Source: Candidatus Spongiisociaceae bacterium
Lineage (GTDB): Bacteria > Actinomycetota > Acidimicrobiia > Spongiisociales > Spongiisociaceae
Assembly: GCA_965219685.1 (NCBI GenBank)
Contig: CBDCOH010000002.1
Span: forward strand, 2,784,001 to 2,848,000
Direction: 5' to 3'
DNA length: 64,000 bases
The translations under genes and the position numbers were made by a program. The notes beneath the pieces were generated by a model. That model ran no database searches. It saw nothing but the letters and a program-made list of their open reading frames with translations, and was not told the origin of the DNA. The first letter of the stretch is position 1, and each line of letters starts with the position of its first letter. This document shows positions 57,969 through 64,000 of the stretch, piece by piece.

Positions 57969-58382
57969 CTAGGCCGTCCTTACCGGCGGGCCGTCGTATG
58001 CCGGGTCTCTCAGGTCGGATCCCTCCCGGTAGGCGGGGCTGTTAATCACCAGGTAGGTGAGGTTGCCCTTGAACTCGTAGGGAACTCCTCTGGGTATGAG
58101 GATGAAGTCGCCGGGTCCGAATCGTTGGGGCGGATCGTCGCCGACCCGGGCGATACCGTCCCCCTCCACGATGAACATGGCGCGGTCGGTCTCCTCGCAG
58201 GTGATCTGCTGCAGCCTGCCCCAGATCTTGATGTGGGTGATGCTGAGCGAATGTGTCTGATCGGGCATCGAGAACGCCGGATCGCGCTCCGTCGATCCGA
58301 TCGCCTTCTTCATGACCAGCGTGTCCTGATCGGGCCCAATCTCGGCGATCTCCGGCACGTCTTCGAGCCTAATGACGGGCAT
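57969..58382 (-). CDS. Cupin domain protein
   Basis: FIVEGDG...PGDFILIPRGVPY...LVINSPAY. Confidence 0.8.
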   Translation of the reverse strand: MPVIRLEDVPEIAEIGPDQDTLVMKKAIGSTERDPAFSMPDQTHSLSITHIKIWGRLQQITCEETDRAMFIVEGDGIARVGDDPPQRFGPGDFILIPRGVPYEFKGNLTYLVINSPAYREGSDLRDPAYDGPPVRTA

Positions 58383-58580
58383 CGGTCCTCCCTATGGTCG
58401 GCAAGCTCACGGAGAAAACCGTACACGCCGGAACGAGCTACCAGGGTTGGAGTCCGTCGGTCAGCAGTTCCGCAGATCGGTCCGAGCCGGGCGCGTATAG
58501 GCGCGGAACTCGGGCATATGCATCGGACTCCCTTCCCTAATCGCAAGGGCCGTGATGGGCGTTGGCAGGCTCCAAACCCT

Positions 58581-58703
58581 GCCGGCCGGATGATCTACAT
58601 GGACGCGGGGGAATCGGTGGACCAGGGCCCGACGGAGGACCTCATACGCAAGCCACAAAACGAGGACCTCAAGAGGTTCCTCGGTGCCATGTCAACCGCC
58701 TGA
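58581..58703 (+). pseudogene. 3' remnant of a polar amino acid ABC ATP-binding gene
   Basis: AGRMIYMDAGESVDQGPTEDLIRKPQNEDLKRFL resembles GlnQ-type C-termini; no Walker motifs upstream. Confidence 0.6.
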
Positions 58704-58730
58704 CCGCAAATCGGAGACGAGCGACCCGTC

Positions 58731-60428
58731 TCAACCCGGGGGTATTACGGGCAGGACTATGTGTGACATCCGGACGGTGTCGTGGTAGACGGTTTGGCGG
58801 GCGACTCGTATCTGGTCGTCGTCGGCGATGGGGTTGCCGGTGTTGAGGTTGCGGTCGAAGCGGGGGAAGTTTGCACTGGCGATGTCAACCCTGATCCGGT
58901 GGCCCTTCTTGAACACGTTACTCGTCACCCAGAGGTCGATGGTGAACTCGTAGACCTCACCGGGCTCCAGCAGCACCTGGTGCTCGGCGCTCTCCCGGTA
59001 GCGGCCGCGGATGATCCCGTCGCATAGGTTCCTGGCGTACCCGTCGGGGTGTACGTCGACCAGCTTGGCGGTGAAGTCGGTGTCTTTCCCGTCGGTGGCG
59101 GCGAACAGCTTGACGATTACCGGCCCGGTGACCTCCAGGTCGGCCTCGATCGGGTCCGACGTGTAGACGAGGACGTCGTTGCGGTACTCGATCGGTCGCT
59201 GGTCGTAGGAGCCCCACTCGACGATCTCCGGGTTGCAGCAGGTGGTCCCGCCCATGGTGGGGGTCGCGAACGCCGGGTTGTACACGTACTCGTCGGCGGG
59301 CTCGTCGCCCGGCGGCTCGGTCGACAGCGTCCCGTCGCCCAGGAGCGAGTTGGCCGAACCCCGGCTGTGGAAGTACCACGGGGTGAACTCGGTGCGGGCC
59401 AGCGGCCATTCCTGCTCGTCCCGCCACTCGTCGGCGCCCATCGTGTAGATTCGCAGCGGTGGGTCCTCGTCAACCCCGTTGTCCTTCCCCTTCAGCCAGT
59501 GGTCGTACCACCGCAGCTGGATCTCGTCGACGTCCAGTACCGAGGCCTTGCCGAAGTCGACCTCCCCCGCGTGGGTCTCGGTGTTGGTGTGGTGGTGCCA
59601 CGGACCGATCACGACCCGCTGGTGGTTGCGGGCGAGCTCGGAGCCTCCCCTCTGCTGCATCCCCACGAAGTTGTTCATGGTGCCGCCGGCGAACACGTCG
59701 TACCAGCCGCCGATCTGCAGCACAGGGATCTTCACCCTCTCGTACTGCTCCTTGAGTGACATCCCCTTCCAGTAGTCGTCGTAGTCGGGATGGTCGAGCC
59801 ACCTCTGGAAGAAGTGGACGTCCTTGCCGCCGTACTCGGGTATGGCCCGCAGCGGCAGCTTCGAGAAGATGCGCTTCCAGTTGAAGCGGTCGATGAGCTG
59901 CCAGGTGCGCCCGCCCATCCGGAAGCTCCATGTGGCGTTGAGGTGCAGGGTGAAGGCCCCGCCCTGGTAGTGCGGCGAGTTGTGCAGGTTGTCGCCGATG
60001 ACCCGGGGCACGATCGCCTTCAGGTAGCGACTTCCCATCGCAGCCGCCATCCACTGCACGCCCCCGACGTACGAGTCGCCGTGCATGCCGATGTTCCCGT
60101 CGCACCAGGCCTGCGAGCCGAGCCACTCCAGGGTGTCGTACCCGTCCTCGTACTCCTGGATCCACGGGTTGAAACGGCCGTCCGAGTCGTTGCGCCCCCG
60201 GCAGTCCTGAGCGGCGAAGACGTACCCGTTCTGAGCGAAATAGATGGCGGAGTCGACCACCCATTCGGACATGTTGTCGTACGGGGTCCTGGCCAGGATC
60301 ACCGGGAAGGGACCCTCGTGCCGCGCAGGAAAGTAGATGTCGATGGACGTCTCGACGCCGTCGCGCATCGGCACCCTCACGTTGTTACGAACGTCGATAC
60401 CGGCAGGAAGGAAGGCGGTCTCCGCCAT
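58731..60428 (-). CDS. CocE/NonD family serine hydrolase
   Basis: VPMRDGV, RTPY, QDCRGRNDSDG, GDSYVG, GGWYD and IGPWHH motifs. Confidence 0.93.
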   Translation of the reverse strand: MAETAFLPAGIDVRNNVRVPMRDGVETSIDIYFPARHEGPFPVILARTPYDNMSEWVVDSAIYFAQNGYVFAAQDCRGRNDSDGRFNPWIQEYEDGYDTLEWLGSQAWCDGNIGMHGDSYVGGVQWMAAAMGSRYLKAIVPRVIGDNLHNSPHYQGGAFTLHLNATWSFRMGGRTWQLIDRFNWKRIFSKLPLRAIPEYGGKDVHFFQRWLDHPDYDDYWKGMSLKEQYERVKIPVLQIGGWYDVFAGGTMNNFVGMQQRGGSELARNHQRVVIGPWHHHTNTETHAGEVDFGKASVLDVDEIQLRWYDHWLKGKDNGVDEDPPLRIYTMGADEWRDEQEWPLARTEFTPWYFHSRGSANSLLGDGTLSTEPPGDEPADEYVYNPAFATPTMGGTTCCNPEIVEWGSYDQRPIEYRNDVLVYTSDPIEADLEVTGPVIVKLFAATDGKDTDFTAKLVDVHPDGYARNLCDGIIRGRYRESAEHQVLLEPGEVYEFTIDLWVTSNVFKKGHRIRVDIASANFPRFDRNLNTGNPIADDDQIRVARQTVYHDTVRMSHIVLPVIPPG

Positions 60429-60628
60429 CGGTCGCCCTTCGTTGGCTCTCGGCCCGGACAATAACCGCCGACCCGCGGCACGGCTTCCCAGGATCTGCTT
60501 CGAGACCGGCCTGATCGTCCCACAGGCATAGCCCCGCGCCGTGAGGCACCAGGATCCTTGGATCGGCTTTGCCCGGGCATCCGACACCTCAGAAGGACTG
60601 CCCGCTGCGACCGGCTACCGTTTGGTCC

Positions 60629-61033
60629 ATGATGGACATGCACACCGACGACCCTTCACACCTCGCTGTGAGCGGCCTCGTGCAAACACCCGACCGCTAC
60701 GACCTCGAAGCCCTCGTCCGCCTCGGCGACAACCGGGAAGGGACCGACTCGGTAGTACCGGTACGCCGGGTGATCGACGCCGCCAGCCCCGCGGCTTCGG
60801 CCACGCACGTGACCGCTTTGAGCGCGGACGGCTCCTACTCTGCCTCGATCCCTCTCGGAGAAGCCGTTTCCAAGGGCGAGATCCATATCGACGAAGCGGC
60901 CGGGAACCCCCTGCCCATCCGGCTACTCGTTCCCGGAGGCATGACCTTGTGCTGGAACGTGAAGGGCCTGGGTCGGCTCCGGGTCACGGAGGGACCGGAA
61001 CCGGACAGCCTCCCGGAGGTCCTGACCCACTGA
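60629..61033 (+). CDS. Small molybdopterin-oxidoreductase-like domain protein
   Basis: SADGSYSASIPL...PIRLLVPG...CWNVKGL. Confidence 0.6.
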   Translation: MMDMHTDDPSHLAVSGLVQTPDRYDLEALVRLGDNREGTDSVVPVRRVIDAASPAASATHVTALSADGSYSASIPLGEAVSKGEIHIDEAAGNPLPIRLLVPGGMTLCWNVKGLGRLRVTEGPEPDSLPEVLTH

Positions 61034-61662
61034 TGACCGCCGACGCGGGGATGGCTTTCGCCCAGCTGTTCTCCCAGCGGCGCCGCGAACTCGACCTGTC
61101 GGTGGTCGACGTTGCGGTCAGCACCGGCCTGCCGATCGAGGTCGTGGTGGGCTGGGACCAGGGGAGGTCCGTGCCCGACGGTGACGACCTGGACAAGGTG
61201 TCCGACTTCCTCAAGCTTCCGAAACCCCTGCTCACGGAGGCTCTGCGGCGCGTGGCCGACCACCGCCTCGAGACAACCGGGCCGGACCTTCCCAGGCCGC
61301 CGGAGCCGGCGGAGGACCCCTTCGATGCCGCCGCGATGTCCCAGGAGGCCCTGCTCGACGACCCTTACCCCTCCACGACCGTCGGCGAGCGTCTTCGCCA
61401 ATTGCCGGGCATGGCCCGGCGCTCCTTCTCGGGCCTCTTCAACGATATTCGCCGGTACTGGAGCCGCAAGCGTCGCATGGCGAGAGCGCCGACCGCCTAC
61501 CCGTCCTACAGGGAGGACCGTGACCAACTGCTCACCTACCGGTTGAGAATGGTCTTCACGGCCGCGGGCACCGCGGTGCTCACCCTCGTCCTTCGCTGGT
61601 CGCTCGGCGGGCTGGGTACGTCGATCGCCGACCTGTGGAATGCTCTCACCGGGGCTCTCTGA
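61033..61662 (+). CDS. XRE-type HTH protein with a C-terminal membrane segment
   Basis: N-terminal RRRELDLSVVDVA...WDQGRSVP; hydrophobic C-terminus; TGATG overlap. Confidence 0.7.
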   Translation: MTADAGMAFAQLFSQRRRELDLSVVDVAVSTGLPIEVVVGWDQGRSVPDGDDLDKVSDFLKLPKPLLTEALRRVADHRLETTGPDLPRPPEPAEDPFDAAAMSQEALLDDPYPSTTVGERLRQLPGMARRSFSGLFNDIRRYWSRKRRMARAPTAYPSYREDRDQLLTYRLRMVFTAAGTAVLTLVLRWSLGGLGTSIADLWNALTGAL

Positions 61663-61731
61663 CACAGATGTTCCTCACACGCGCTCGCGACGGCTAGGAT
61701 CATCCTCACCAGAGAAAGGAGGTGGTCCGAC

Positions 61732-61776
61732 TTGTTAGACAGTTCGTGTAGGACTCTGGAGGTGGCCGAGCGCTAG
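61732..61776 (+). CDS. Putative 14-aa peptide MLDSSCRTLEVAER
   Basis: TTG start 9 nt after the GGAGG of an extended SD, AAAGGAGGTGGTCC. Confidence 0.5.
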   Translation: MLDSSCRTLEVAER

Positions 61777-61950
61777 CGGCCGCGGGTCGCTTCCGATCGC
61801 TCCCCACACGGGAGTGATCGGGCAGGTGGCGACTCCAACTCGGACCACCGGGTCTCCCGTCCGCATGCTGGTCCTCATGCGGCATCGGTAACGAGGGCAG
61901 CGAAGCCCACCGATGAAGTACGGGCAGGCAGCAAAACTATCCAGAAGTCG

Positions 61951-61987
61951 TCGGGGACCCCCATACGGGGGTCCCCGGCTGTTTTTT
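61951..61987 (+). terminator. Intrinsic terminator
   Basis: TCGGGGACCCCC-ATAC-GGGGGTCCCCGG followed by CTGTTTTTT. Confidence 0.9.
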
Positions 61988-62048
61988 GGCTAGTGGCTGG
62001 TACCTAGTGGAACATACCGACAATATAGGCTAACATATACTGCTTTTG

Positions 62049-62328
62049 ACCATTCACCATTCACCATTCACCATTCACCATTCACCATTCACCATTCACC
62101 ATTCACCATTCACCATTCACCATTCACCATTCACCATTCACCATTCACCATTCACCATTCACCACTCACCACTCACCACTCACCACTCACCACTCACCAC
62201 TCACCACTCACCACTCACCACTCACCACTCACCACTCACCACTCACCACTCACCACTCACCACTCACCACTCACCACTCACCACTCACCACTCACCACTC
62301 ACCACTCACCACTCACCACTCACCACTC
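62049..62328. repeat. Heptamer tandem array (ACCATTC)x16 + (ACCACTC)x24
   Basis: Counted from the sequence; the end of the array supplies the last codons and the stop of the 62320..63270 gene. Confidence 0.97.
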
Positions 62329-63270
62329 AAAGCCGTGCTCTGCCAGCCAGTCCTCGTTCCAGATCTTGGACAGGTACCCGCGTCCCGAATCGGGGATCAG
62401 CACGACGACGAGGCGGTCCGTGGTCTCGGCCGCTACTTCGAGGGCGGCGTGCACGGCCATCCCTCCCGAGCCTCCCACCAGGAGACCCTCGCTCCGGGCG
62501 AGGCGGCGGGCCATGTCGAAGGACTGGTGGTCGTCGACCATGATGTAACGGTCGACGAGGTCCCGGTCCAGGGTCTCAGGCCAAAAGTCCTCCCCGACCC
62601 CCTCGACCCTGTACTGGTGGATGTCCTCCTCGCAGGTGGCCGTGAATATGGATCCCTCGGGATCGGCGCCGACCAGTTCCACACCGGGCTTCCGCTCCCT
62701 CAGGTAACGGCCCACCCCCGTGATCGTCCCGCCCGTCCCGACCCCGGCCACGAAGACATCCACCTCGCCGCAGGTCTGATCCCACACCTCGGGTCCCGTA
62801 GTCAGGTAGTGCGCCTCCGGGTTGAACCGGTTCGAGTACTGGTCGGGGCTGTAGGCGCCTTCGATCTCGGCGGTGAGGCGTCGGGCCACCCCGTAGTAGG
62901 AGTCCTCGTCCTCCGGCAGGAGCTCGGTGGGCGTGACGATTACCTCCGCTCCGTACGCCATGAGCAGGTCGATCTTCTCGGGCGCCACCTTGTCGGGAAC
63001 CGTGCAGATGACCCGGTACCCGCGAACCGCCCCCACCATCGCCAACCCGGCGCCGGTATTGCCCGATGTCGGCTCGATGATGGTCCCGCCTTCGCCGAGG
63101 AGACCCATCTGCTCCGCACGGTCGATCATGTTGACCGCGATCCTCTCCTTGACGGAACCCGCCGGGTTCAAGTAGTCCACCTTGGCCACCAGGTTCCCGG
63201 GCGGGTGCAGGCGGGACAGGCGGACGAGGGGTGTCCCGCCCACCGCGTCGATGGCGCTCTCGTAGATCAC
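62320..63270 (-). CDS. Cysteine synthase / cystathionine beta-synthase family PLP enzyme
   Basis: NPAGSVKERIA, EPTSGNTG, GVGTGGT and PDSGRGYLSK motifs; no CBS domains. Confidence 0.92.
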   Translation of the reverse strand: MIYESAIDAVGGTPLVRLSRLHPPGNLVAKVDYLNPAGSVKERIAVNMIDRAEQMGLLGEGGTIIEPTSGNTGAGLAMVGAVRGYRVICTVPDKVAPEKIDLLMAYGAEVIVTPTELLPEDEDSYYGVARRLTAEIEGAYSPDQYSNRFNPEAHYLTTGPEVWDQTCGEVDVFVAGVGTGGTITGVGRYLRERKPGVELVGADPEGSIFTATCEEDIHQYRVEGVGEDFWPETLDRDLVDRYIMVDDHQSFDMARRLARSEGLLVGGSGGMAVHAALEVAAETTDRLVVVLIPDSGRGYLSKIWNEDWLAEHGFEW

Positions 63271-63313
63271 GAGCGGGGAGGGTAGCGGCGGGGATCCCGG
63301 GCGCTGCCGGAGC

Positions 63314-64000
63314 TCACAACTGGGCCGCCATCTGCTCGTAGGTGGAGACCGGCGTGCGGCAGACACCCCGCTCACACACGTAGGCGAGTGTCTCCCCCTC
63401 GCGATACCGGCCCGCCAGCACCGGGACGGTGTCGTCGGGCTCTGTAGTGGGCGCTACCAGAACGTTGGGACGGTACGCGGAGGCGAGTCTTGCCGCCCAC
63501 TCCAAGGAATCGGGCCCGGCCAGGGCGACCTCCCGGTAACCCGCCTGCGAGGTTGCGAGGACGGCCAGCAGGTGCCCTGCCGCGCTCGGAGCCGCCTCGA
63601 CCAGCCGATGGCCGGAGCGAACGATCTGCTCGAACCGGTCGTGGTAGGTGAAGTCCCCGGTCAAATGGCCGATGATCAGGTAACACTCCGCCGCCAGGGA
63701 CGCCCCGGAGGCGCTCGGGTTGTCCTGCTGGTCGGGTGGCCGGACCACCAGGTTGGAAGCATCGGCGGCACTGGCGAACAAGACGCCCCCCGGACCGCCG
63801 AAGTGGCGTTCGAGCAGGTCGATAAGATCCTGCGCCGCCTCGAACCACCCGGACTCGCCGGTGGCCTGGTACAGCTCGAGAAGGCCGAGGGCGTAGGAAG
63901 CGTGATCCTCCAGGAACCCCGCCACGGGGGACAGACCGTTGCTCCAAGTGCGGGACAGCCGCCCGTCCGGGCGCCGCATCTCGCCCAGCACGAAGCCCGC
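63314..64000 (-). CDS. YyaL/DUF255 thioredoxin-domain protein (3' part)
   Basis: GFLEDHA...GLLELYQATG, QDNPSASG and AYVCERGVC motifs. Confidence 0.88.
   Translation of the reverse strand, partial: AGFVLGEMRRPDGRLSRTWSNGLSPVAGFLEDHASYALGLLELYQATGESGWFEAAQDLIDLLERHFGGPGGVLFASAADASNLVVRPPDQQDNPSASGASLAAECYLIIGHLTGDFTYHDRFEQIVRSGHRLVEAAPSAAGHLLAVLATSQAGYREVALAGPDSLEWAARLASAYRPNVLVAPTTEPDDTVPVLAGRYREGETLAYVCERGVCRTPVSTYEQMAAQL

Follow-up and report, generated by a model that had tools for sequence, protein, structure and literature searches.

A divergent Ms_IGR-5-like RNA of a Spongiisociaceae bacterium combines a conserved short open reading frame with a 16S rRNA-complementary site: a candidate ribosome-docking regulator

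To our knowledge, the Actinomycetota lack Hfq and few of their small RNAs (sRNAs) are understood. One RNA catalogued from this phylum, Ms_IGR-5 (Rfam family RF02471), was reportedly first described in Mycobacterium smegmatis by Li et al. in 2013. According to the available sections of several reports, Ms_IGR-5 was found by Rfam and validated by RNA-seq in Streptomyces lividans TK24 (PMC8079986), is one of two sRNA transcription units with an Rfam match in Streptomyces avermitilis (PMC8780764), and was re-detected as ncMSMEG15794c in a cold-stress study of M. smegmatis (PMC10454040). The accessible part of a further study places it among several sRNAs with ribosome footprints in Mycobacterium abscessus and M. 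smegmatis (PMC4974804). In the sections of the literature on Ms_IGR-5 and RF02471 that were searched, to which the original description does not belong, no function, open reading frame (ORF) or link to 16S rRNA is described. A tentative identification of the Streptomyces copy as scr4389 was not confirmed in two papers and was dropped. Here we analyze a candidate copy of this RNA in the genome of a Candidatus Spongiisociaceae bacterium (assembly GCA_965219685.1, contig CBDCOH010000002.1, positions 2,784,001 to 2,848,000). This stretch of 64,000 nucleotides (nt) is referred to as the window, and all positions are counted from its first letter. Between 61695 and 61987 of its plus strand lie a -10 box, a structured RNA of about 280 nt, an ORF of 14 codons and a strong terminator.

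Several bacterial sRNAs also encode a peptide, including SgrS/SgrT, RNAIII/hld and SR1/SR1P. The window RNA shares with such dual-function sRNAs, and with the liberated attenuator rnTrpL/peTrpL of Sinorhizobium as presented in part of one report (PMC6614838), a short transcript that has its own terminator and joins a tiny ORF to a conserved structure. It differs from them in that its ORF has only 12–15 codons among homologues, in that these codons double as helix strands, and in being spread across the phylum, not just within one genus or family. Type I toxin mRNAs such as hok and aapA1, whose folds are metastable, likewise have a Shine-Dalgarno sequence (SD) that alternative segments can capture and a full-length fold that is closed. 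In contrast to these, the peptide encoded here is short, charged and not hydrophobic, and neither an antisense RNA nor toxin features were seen.

The relationship to Ms_IGR-5 is the closest of all. A cmscan search of positions 58000–64000 against Rfam returned this family as the sole match at E ≤ 1, covering 61708–61914 with 30.1 bits (E = 4.7e-4 in this 6-kb search and 8.1e-5 in the whole genome). The alignment spans positions 1–184 of the 184-position model in the right order and without truncation. The score does not reach the gathering cut-off of 45 bits, and standard annotation would therefore miss the RNA. In a sample of 151 genomes from across the phylum, this Rfam model has a single full-length match in each of 44, of which 19 exceed the cut-off, and the scores fall continuously from 186 to 26 bits; the top scores occur in 6-Mb genomes, and scores of about 80 bits in genomes of 7.5–9 Mb. 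A second model, R1, describes the 5′ domain in 91 positions and was built from 47 sequences, comprising relatives of the window RNA and Rfam-confirmed members. R1 gives the window 85.1 bits and 68–70 bits to the confirmed members of G169, G127 and G195, the three genomes with the highest RF02471 scores (165–186 bits). In a joint alignment of window relatives and high-scoring members (A1), the same blocks appear in the same order. Shared features are a 5′ block of the form AC-NNNN-AGAAAGGAGGUGGUCC ... GGAC-NNNN-GAGGUGGC, a CACC strand, a 3′ hairpin with a GUCC loop, and a single gene copy with a predicted promoter and terminator of its own, whereas the variable middle of the window RNA is longer and its 3′ domain has an extra hairpin and a separate terminator. 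On the evidence of sequence comparison, the match reflects homology rather than chance, with intermediates linking the window to members above the cut-off, and the window RNA is very probably a divergent member of the Ms_IGR-5 family. It is therefore not a new kind of RNA. The initial annotation of the window, made from its sequence alone, could not place the RNA among tmRNA, RNase P, SRP, 6S or Ms1 and held that a hit to a known Rfam family would make it not novel; by that criterion, a full-length, sub-cut-off alignment to RF02471 and a model that scores the window and catalogued members alike speak against novelty.

R1 locates the RNA in 74 of the 151 genomes sampled across the phylum (67 of the 144 of good quality), nearly always once per genome. 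Within the order of the source genome, BLASTN with the window sequence finds it in 59 of 61 genomes, the source itself counted; the two genomes with no match are 72% and 96% complete. These tallies take in genomes flagged as unpublished (G032, G043, G061, G077, G106, G140, G146 and G177), and no claim is based on them alone. One genome, G080, has two full-length copies on different contigs (L053 and L081), while nearly all others have one. The source genome holds a second, partial RF02471 match (L002, G000:C2:1227498-1227546; 17.4 bits, E = 0.17, model positions 14–60), which is probably just an SD-like stretch.

The RNA also carries a site complementary to ribosomal RNA. A 14-nt match to the 3′ end of 16S rRNA, AAAGGAGGTGGTCC, had been recognized at the outset and proves to be part of a longer one of 16 nt, AGAAAGGAGGTGGTCC, which pairs in full with the 16S 3′ end encoded by this genome, GGATCACCTCCTTTCT, through Watson-Crick pairs except for a single G-U. 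Allowing at most one mismatch, this 16-nt pattern occurs only twice in the 4.42-Mb genome, once at the 16S 3′ end itself (confirmed as the end of the small-subunit rRNA) and once in the RNA. The full 16-nt pairing is kept in 94 of 99 distinct homologues, and the variation is nearly all an exchange of A and G opposite U. In several lineages, another segment of the RNA matches the SD over 10–13 base pairs (bp) and resembles the 16S 3′ end. In the window, CGGGTCGCTTCC (61783–61794) of the variable region can pair with the SD in a 12-bp match that uses G-U pairs. The variable middle region of some lineages reproduces the 16S 3′ end exactly or almost exactly, with an 11-nt identity in L112; this 16S-like segment is complementary in full to the SD of the same RNA.

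A TTG-started ORF of 14 codons follows the SD, as the initial annotation had also stated, and an ORF of 12–15 codons is kept in frame in all 99 distinct homologues. Each homologue was anchored on two invariant blocks, GGAGGTG-R-TCC and GAGGTG, and searched for a start codon in the frame of GAG-GTG, 4–16 nt after the SD and with no intervening stop. An in-frame start was found 5–13 nt after the SD in 99 of 99. In this frame, 82 homologues have a canonical start (TTG 67, ATG 9, GTG 6), 17 have a near-cognate start only and none has neither; in frame +1 the corresponding counts are 13, 30 and 56, and in frame +2 they are 0, 1 and 98. The distance between SD and GAGGTG takes 13 values from 24 to 45 nt (31–41 nt with the three weak hits described below excluded) and is not restricted to multiples of three. 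The start stays in frame despite this variation, so that the start codon tracks the frame and not the distance. One relative, L030, has lost exactly three bases in frame within the ORF. At the other end, the stop codon lies exactly five codons after GAG in 98 of 99 homologues, in different contexts and with all three stop codons in use (TAG 63, TGA 22, TAA 14). The exception, L022, is an anchoring error: a relaxed pattern had placed its anchor in the upstream gene, and a stricter anchor recovers a normal 14-codon ORF, the true stop of which is TAA although it is counted under TGA.

Three weak R1 hits, L121, L123 and L124 (36.5, 32.9 and 25.8 bits), were left out of the tallies of the ORF and of the P1 helix introduced below, and may be non-homologous; the small ORF was not seen in them, two running into ORFs of 58–59 codons and one stopping after three codons. 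L121 and L123 keep the SD block and the residues E-V-A before they run on, and may be unrelated or may represent a short ORF fused to something longer. In the window, the second codon of the ORF (61735–61737) is TTA, and several others end in A or T (among AGT, TGT, AGG, ACT) in a region of about 65% G+C. TTA is a very rare codon in high-G+C actinobacteria.

The encoded peptides have 12–15 residues and a variable N-terminal half. Counted from the C-terminus, T stands at position -7 in 84 of 99 and E-V at -5/-4 in 98 of 99. The window peptide, MLDSSCRTLEVAER, is polar and charged, as are its homologues, in agreement with the first reading of it as non-hydrophobic and unlike a type I toxin. If the peptide itself, with its C-terminal T-x-E-V-x-x-x, were the functional product, the RNA would be a micro-protein gene and the structured remainder a stabilizing 3′ untranslated region (UTR). 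The strong SD, an apparent promoter of the housekeeping type, the conserved C-terminal residues and an ORF length held at 12–15 codons would all suit such a gene. However, E-V is encoded by the invariant GAGGUG, which is a helix strand, and the position preceding it covaries with its RNA partner while the residue is not kept; the N-terminal half varies, conserved helices and a loop motif that a mere UTR would not need are present in the 3′ two-thirds of the RNA, and no evidence of the peptide was found. We consider a micro-protein gene quite unlikely.

The helix strands in question emerge from comparison. RNAalifold, run on a plain MAFFT alignment of 47 distinct homologues that was not guided by structure, by itself predicts two helices, P1 and C. 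The core of P1 joins RNA bases 2–5 to the four bases before GAGGUG (61709–61712 with 61756–61759) and can be extended to 61714/61754. In an alignment-free count, 92 of 99 homologues have standard pairs at every one of the four core positions, and more than 14 combinations of these pairs occur. Covariation is evident at single pairs, for instance pair 3-56 of P1 (C-G 20, A-U 12, G-C 11, G-U 2, U-A 1) and pair 65-177 of helix C (C-G 24, U-A 21). Helix C pairs GGUGG-CCGAG with CUCGG-A-CCACC, the former being a second SD-like copy inside the ORF. A further short helix, B, has a signal of conservation rather than covariation because both of its sides are nearly invariant. Taken jointly, P1, B and C have 87.9% of cells paired against 77.1% in shuffles and 105 compensatory cells against 42.4, and neither value was reached in 500 shuffles; with partners slid by one to three columns as a control, 28–43% of cells pair and at most 14 are compensatory. 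In the fold defined in this way, the SD (about 61715–61724) stays unpaired, bulging out between P1 and B, and an A/U-rich apical loop of 22 nt contains the start codon. Covariation among the homologous sequences thus supports a fold that leaves the SD in a bulge. In the 3′ domain, 46 of 47 aligned homologues can form a P5 stem of 5 bp or more from many different sequences, and the P5 loop keeps GGUCC or a close variant containing GTC. The 3′ helices of the Rfam consensus are equivalent to P4 and P5, but this consensus contains neither P1 nor helix C and pairs the SD segment with codons after GAGGUG.

Energy-based prediction favors a different arrangement. The RNA strand is highly structured, as first proposed, with -152.3 kcal/mol against -118.4 ± 5.7 in 200 shuffles (z = -5.9; 0 of 200 as good), and the fold prediction contains the hairpins named at the time. 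At its energy minimum of -144.7 kcal/mol, the 279-nt transcript has the SD segment paired with 61840–61849; with P1 enforced the energy is -134.6 kcal/mol, and the model adds helix C without its being imposed. A long-range stem burying the SD had been drawn in the initial annotation. Its strands, GGTGGTCCGA (61721–61730) and TCGGACCACC (61840–61849), are indeed perfect complements and are paired in the minimum-energy fold, but the stem finds no comparative support and is not the conserved fold: across homologues 77.2% of its cells pair against 77.9% in shuffles (486 of 500 as high), and its lower three pairs are broken in 20–22 of the 47 sequences. That the upper part can pair follows from the GGUGG common to the SD and the second copy, and the CCACC strand covaries with the latter, which lies in the ORF, rather than with the SD. 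Evolution has therefore preserved the open fold, and the closed fold is the predicted ground state for the window sequence. During synthesis, P1 and B are complete once about 52 nt have been made, and the CCACC strand follows about 80 nt later.

Public RNA data bear on whether the RNA is made. No RNA run contains the exact sequence of the window; eight RNA runs contain small shares, and four of these were compared with the locus. In three RNA libraries from three studies, 225-nt contigs of relatives are confined to the RNA, running from 61718/9 to about 61889–61935, while a fourth run compared (X2) has no contig on the RNA stretch. High-depth short contigs of run X8 over 62046–62100 match a simple repeat and are uninformative for the RNA locus. 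The confined contigs give a weak hint of a discrete, abundant RNA, the assembled part of which ends before the terminator hairpin.

Size and apparent abundance recall Ms1 and 6S, which are likewise abundant, structured, stand-alone RNAs of 200–300 nt from the same phylum, and the initial annotation had offered an Ms1/6S analogue next to a ribosome-binding or dual-function RNA. An RNA polymerase-binding RNA standing in for Ms1/6S in the Spongiisociaceae lineage would account for a highly structured molecule of about 225–280 nt that seems abundant in RNA libraries, and for a genome in which the Ms1 model (RF02566) finds no match at E ≤ 1 anywhere. The window RNA has, however, no sequence or structure match to these families, the 6S models giving nothing at E ≤ 1 within 58000–64000, and its neighboring genes differ. 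Ms1 has been located by synteny with a flanking gene for a HAD-IB hydrolase/phosphoserine phosphatase, in the available part of the report (PMC9130861), and no HAD hydrolase is present among the four neighboring ORFs scanned. As far as the accessible sections of the reports go, Ms_IGR-5 is a separate family recorded in M. smegmatis and Streptomyces, where Ms1 also exists (PMC10454040, PMC8079986, PMC9130861), and the main text of a paper on sequencing of RNAs co-immunoprecipitated with RNA polymerase (RIP-seq) mentions neither IGR-5 nor 5794. The window RNA carries an SD, a start codon and an ORF, and therefore points to the ribosome rather than to RNA polymerase. A stand-in for Ms1/6S is thus very improbable, whereas the other half of that early suggestion, a ribosome-binding or dual-function RNA, fits the 16S pairing and the ORF in their near-complete conservation.

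We favor, at a probability of roughly 60%, a reading in which the Ms_IGR-5 copy is a regulatory RNA that docks ribosomes, is translated and has its fold remodelled in the process. Its gene would stand alone, with transcription running from a promoter of the housekeeping type (-10 TAGGAT, start near 61708) to a dedicated terminator. P1 and B would hold the 16-nt docking site for 16S rRNA as an open bulge, with the start codon presented in the A/U-rich apical loop, and a 30S subunit would dock at this site and translate the 12–15 codon ORF. The last five sense codons contain the second SD-like copy, GGUGG-CCGAG, which forms the 5′ side of helix C; the opposite strand, CUCGGACCACC, is similar to the 16S 3′ end. 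A translating ribosome would have to melt P1, B and helix C, since their strands are codons 8–13, and the released CCACC strand could then pair with the real SD, GGUGGUCCGA, to give a more stable closed fold. With the helices melted by the ribosome and the SD captured by the freed CCACC, translation would shift the RNA between an open, ribosome-accessible state and a closed one. It would also change what the 3′ domain presents, notably the P5 hairpin with its conserved GGUCC loop. The output may be self-limited peptide synthesis, titration or holding of 30S subunits, or exposure of a pairing seed in the form of the 16S-like strand or the GGUCC loop. Judging from its conservation in sequence, the ORF is likely to be translated, including in the Spongiisociaceae organism. 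The translation-driven switch, which is modelled from the two alternative folds, is a tentative proposal and may well not operate as described.

The favored reading has to be weighed against that of a purely non-coding, trans-acting sRNA with an incidental ORF, which would base-pair through CCACC or the 16S-like segments with SDs of mRNAs, as the C-rich loops of 6C do, or would act as a 30S decoy with no productive translation. This is in keeping with the cataloguing of the family as an sRNA in Rfam, with the constraint that P1 and helix C place on the 3′ half of the ORF at the RNA level, with the near-cognate starts of some homologues and with the recurrence of 16S 3′-end look-alikes in the variable region of several lineages. 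Yet a pure pairing RNA requires no feature of an ORF, and here the start tracks the frame in every homologue while canonical starts in the other two frames number 13 and 0; TAG, TGA and TAA all serve as stops at one fixed codon position, a deletion of 3 nt leaves the frame intact in one relative, and the spacing of 5–13 nt between SD and start is what a translated gene needs. We therefore regard a non-coding sRNA as rather unlikely, and a 30S decoy that also initiates translation would merge with the favored reading.

Other observations count against the favored reading or temper parts of it. The start position offers only CTG (15), ATA (1) or ATT (1) in 17 of the 99 homologues. Conservation of the peptide is partly forced by RNA structure, E-V being nothing other than the invariant GAGGUG, and residue -6 varies (L, R, P, C, H, E) along with its P1 partner. 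The homologues are related to one another, so that shuffle tests overstate significance. Only 12 of 32 homologues show convincing complementarity between the SD and an anti-SD strand, with no more than 5 of 200 shuffles doing as well, and in the window the duplex of the 14-nt SD segment with the rest of the RNA is equalled by 19 of 200 dinucleotide shuffles; given this mixed outcome, universal SD sequestration is not claimed, and the closed state may not be universal. The equilibrium probability of P1 in full-length RNAs ranges from 0.00 to 0.73 and is below 0.2 in 26 of 32 homologues. This may reflect a limit of the energy model, or an open fold that is kinetic or ribosome-bound, and is not read as speaking against the covariation. 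The RNA contigs come from relatives, and contigs cannot reveal the ends or the strand of an RNA. The mycobacterial ribosome footprints are unspecific, as they also cover 6C and F6, and ribonucleoproteins co-sediment with ribosomes, according to the available part of that study (PMC4974804). Finally, the RF02471 score of the window lies under the curated cut-off of Rfam.

The setting of the RNA is that expected of an independent transcription unit. The -10 box named in the initial annotation is present and is preceded by a weak -35-like hexamer, while a consensus scan for promoters gave no full sigma-70 match at the RNA locus. In most of the relatives aligned or listed, TANNNT stands about 7 nt before the first conserved base, with a few distant rows having no clear one, and a TTG-type hexamer occupies the alignment position of the -35 element, often 17–18 nt before the -10. 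The transcript start is placed at 61708 because conservation, the Rfam match and model R1 all begin there. The predicted terminator is likewise borne out, and relatives have terminators or long G+C stems 3′ of the RNA. Downstream, the plus strand has no gene, as had been noted, but a tandem repeat followed by a convergent PALP-family gene (62320–63375, minus strand).

A short ORF, alternative helices and a terminator make up the classical layout of an attenuator, and the RNA might be read as a leader peptide or riboswitch-like leader for a downstream gene. Against this, no gene follows on the same strand in the window; of the 38 loci examined, 30 have a called downstream ORF, and it is convergent in 24 of them; the genes on either side show no conservation; and the short ORF is not enriched in any one amino acid. 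A leader function is accordingly most improbable, and the RNA is probably an independent transcription unit rather than a simple leader, as the first reading of the locus had held. Among the nearest likely genes at the 38 loci, where ORFs were picked by GC content at third codon positions (GC3), a rough method, no neighbor is common across lineages and the flanking genes differ by lineage. PALP is convergent after the RNA in several relatives, so that the neighborhood is conserved only within the family.

The four neighboring ORFs scanned comprise Oxidored_molyb, one with no Pfam family, PALP and Peptidase_S15. The second of these, an ORF of 205 residues at 61045–61662 on the plus strand, bounds the locus directly upstream with its stop at 61662; in at least one relative from the same family (L030), the gene ahead of the RNA encodes a similar protein whose C-terminus is hydrophobic. 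The spacer between the RNA terminator and the PALP gene is occupied by a perfect 7-bp tandem repeat of about 40 copies (62049–62329; about 17 CATTCAC, then about 23 CACTCAC), which reaches into the last codons of PALP and gives a spurious plus-strand ORF of 165 codons. The features of the locus are collected in Table 1.

Table 1. Features of the Ms_IGR-5-like locus, in window positions
Feature	Position	Strand	Remarks
-35-like hexamer TTCCTC	61671..61676	+	weak; 18 nt upstream of the -10 box; putative, read from the sequence
-10 box TAGGAT (TANNNT type)	61695..61700	+	read from the sequence
Primary transcript, about 280 nt (putative)	61708..61987	+	conserved core 61708 to about 61935
Helix P1, 5′ strand CCAGAG	61709..61714	+	pairs with 61754–61759
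Extended Shine-Dalgarno, 16-nt complement of the 16S 3′ end, AGAAAGGAGGTGGTCC	61713..61728	+	bulge between P1 and helix B
Helix B, 5′ strand GTCC	61725..61728	+	pairs with GGAC, 61751–61754; 87.8% of cells paired
Small ORF, TTG start, 14 codons, MLDSSCRTLEVAER, TAG stop	61732..61776	+	kept in homologues
Helix P1, 3′ strand CTCTGG	61754..61759	+	within ORF codons 8–10
Helix C, 5′ strand GGTGGCCGAG	61761..61770	+	second SD-like copy; ORF codons 10–13
Variable region	61762..61835	+	length and sequence differ between lineages
Hairpin GTGGCCG/CGGCCGC	61762–61768 / 61777–61783	+	stop codon in loop; predicted fold
Long hairpin GGGTCGC...GCGACTC	61784–61835	+	predicted fold
Helix C, 3′ strand CTCGGACCACC	61839..61849	+	resembles the 16S 3′ end; SD partner in the minimum-energy fold
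3′ domain	61856..61924	+	P4 (CCCGT 61856–61860 / ACGGG 61920–61924) enclosing P5 and P6
P5 hairpin	61861–61882	+	loop CTGGTCCT, 61868–61875
P6	61883–61915	+	predicted fold
Intrinsic terminator	61950..61987	+	13-bp G+C-rich stem 61950–61979, T-run 61982–61987

The RNA gene was thus already catalogued, and its ORF, function and ribosome link are undescribed in the literature searched. What is new is a 16-nt match to 16S rRNA that is unique in the genome, a conserved ORF of 12–15 codons, and a fold supported by covariation that differs both from the one first drawn for the window and from the Rfam consensus. The Rfam model misses the entire order of the source genome, and its consensus is drawn without P1 and helix C, for which the covariation support is strongest; annotation would benefit from rebuilding the model. 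For the Actinomycetota, the RNA is a candidate ribosome-directed regulator that occurs as a single copy in about half of the sampled genomes, including mycobacteria-like and Streptomyces-like lineages, holds the genome's best match to the 16S 3′ end, and has a tiny ORF whose codons double as covarying helix strands. On a speculative view, for which the odds are rather low, the part that 6S and Ms1 play for RNA polymerase might be played for the ribosome by Ms_IGR-5. Abundant and present across the phylum, such an RNA would dock free 30S subunits through the longest 16S-complementary site of the genome, with one short round of translation flipping it between open and closed folds, and may thereby sense or buffer spare translational capacity while exposing or hiding its 16S-like segments and GGUCC loop.

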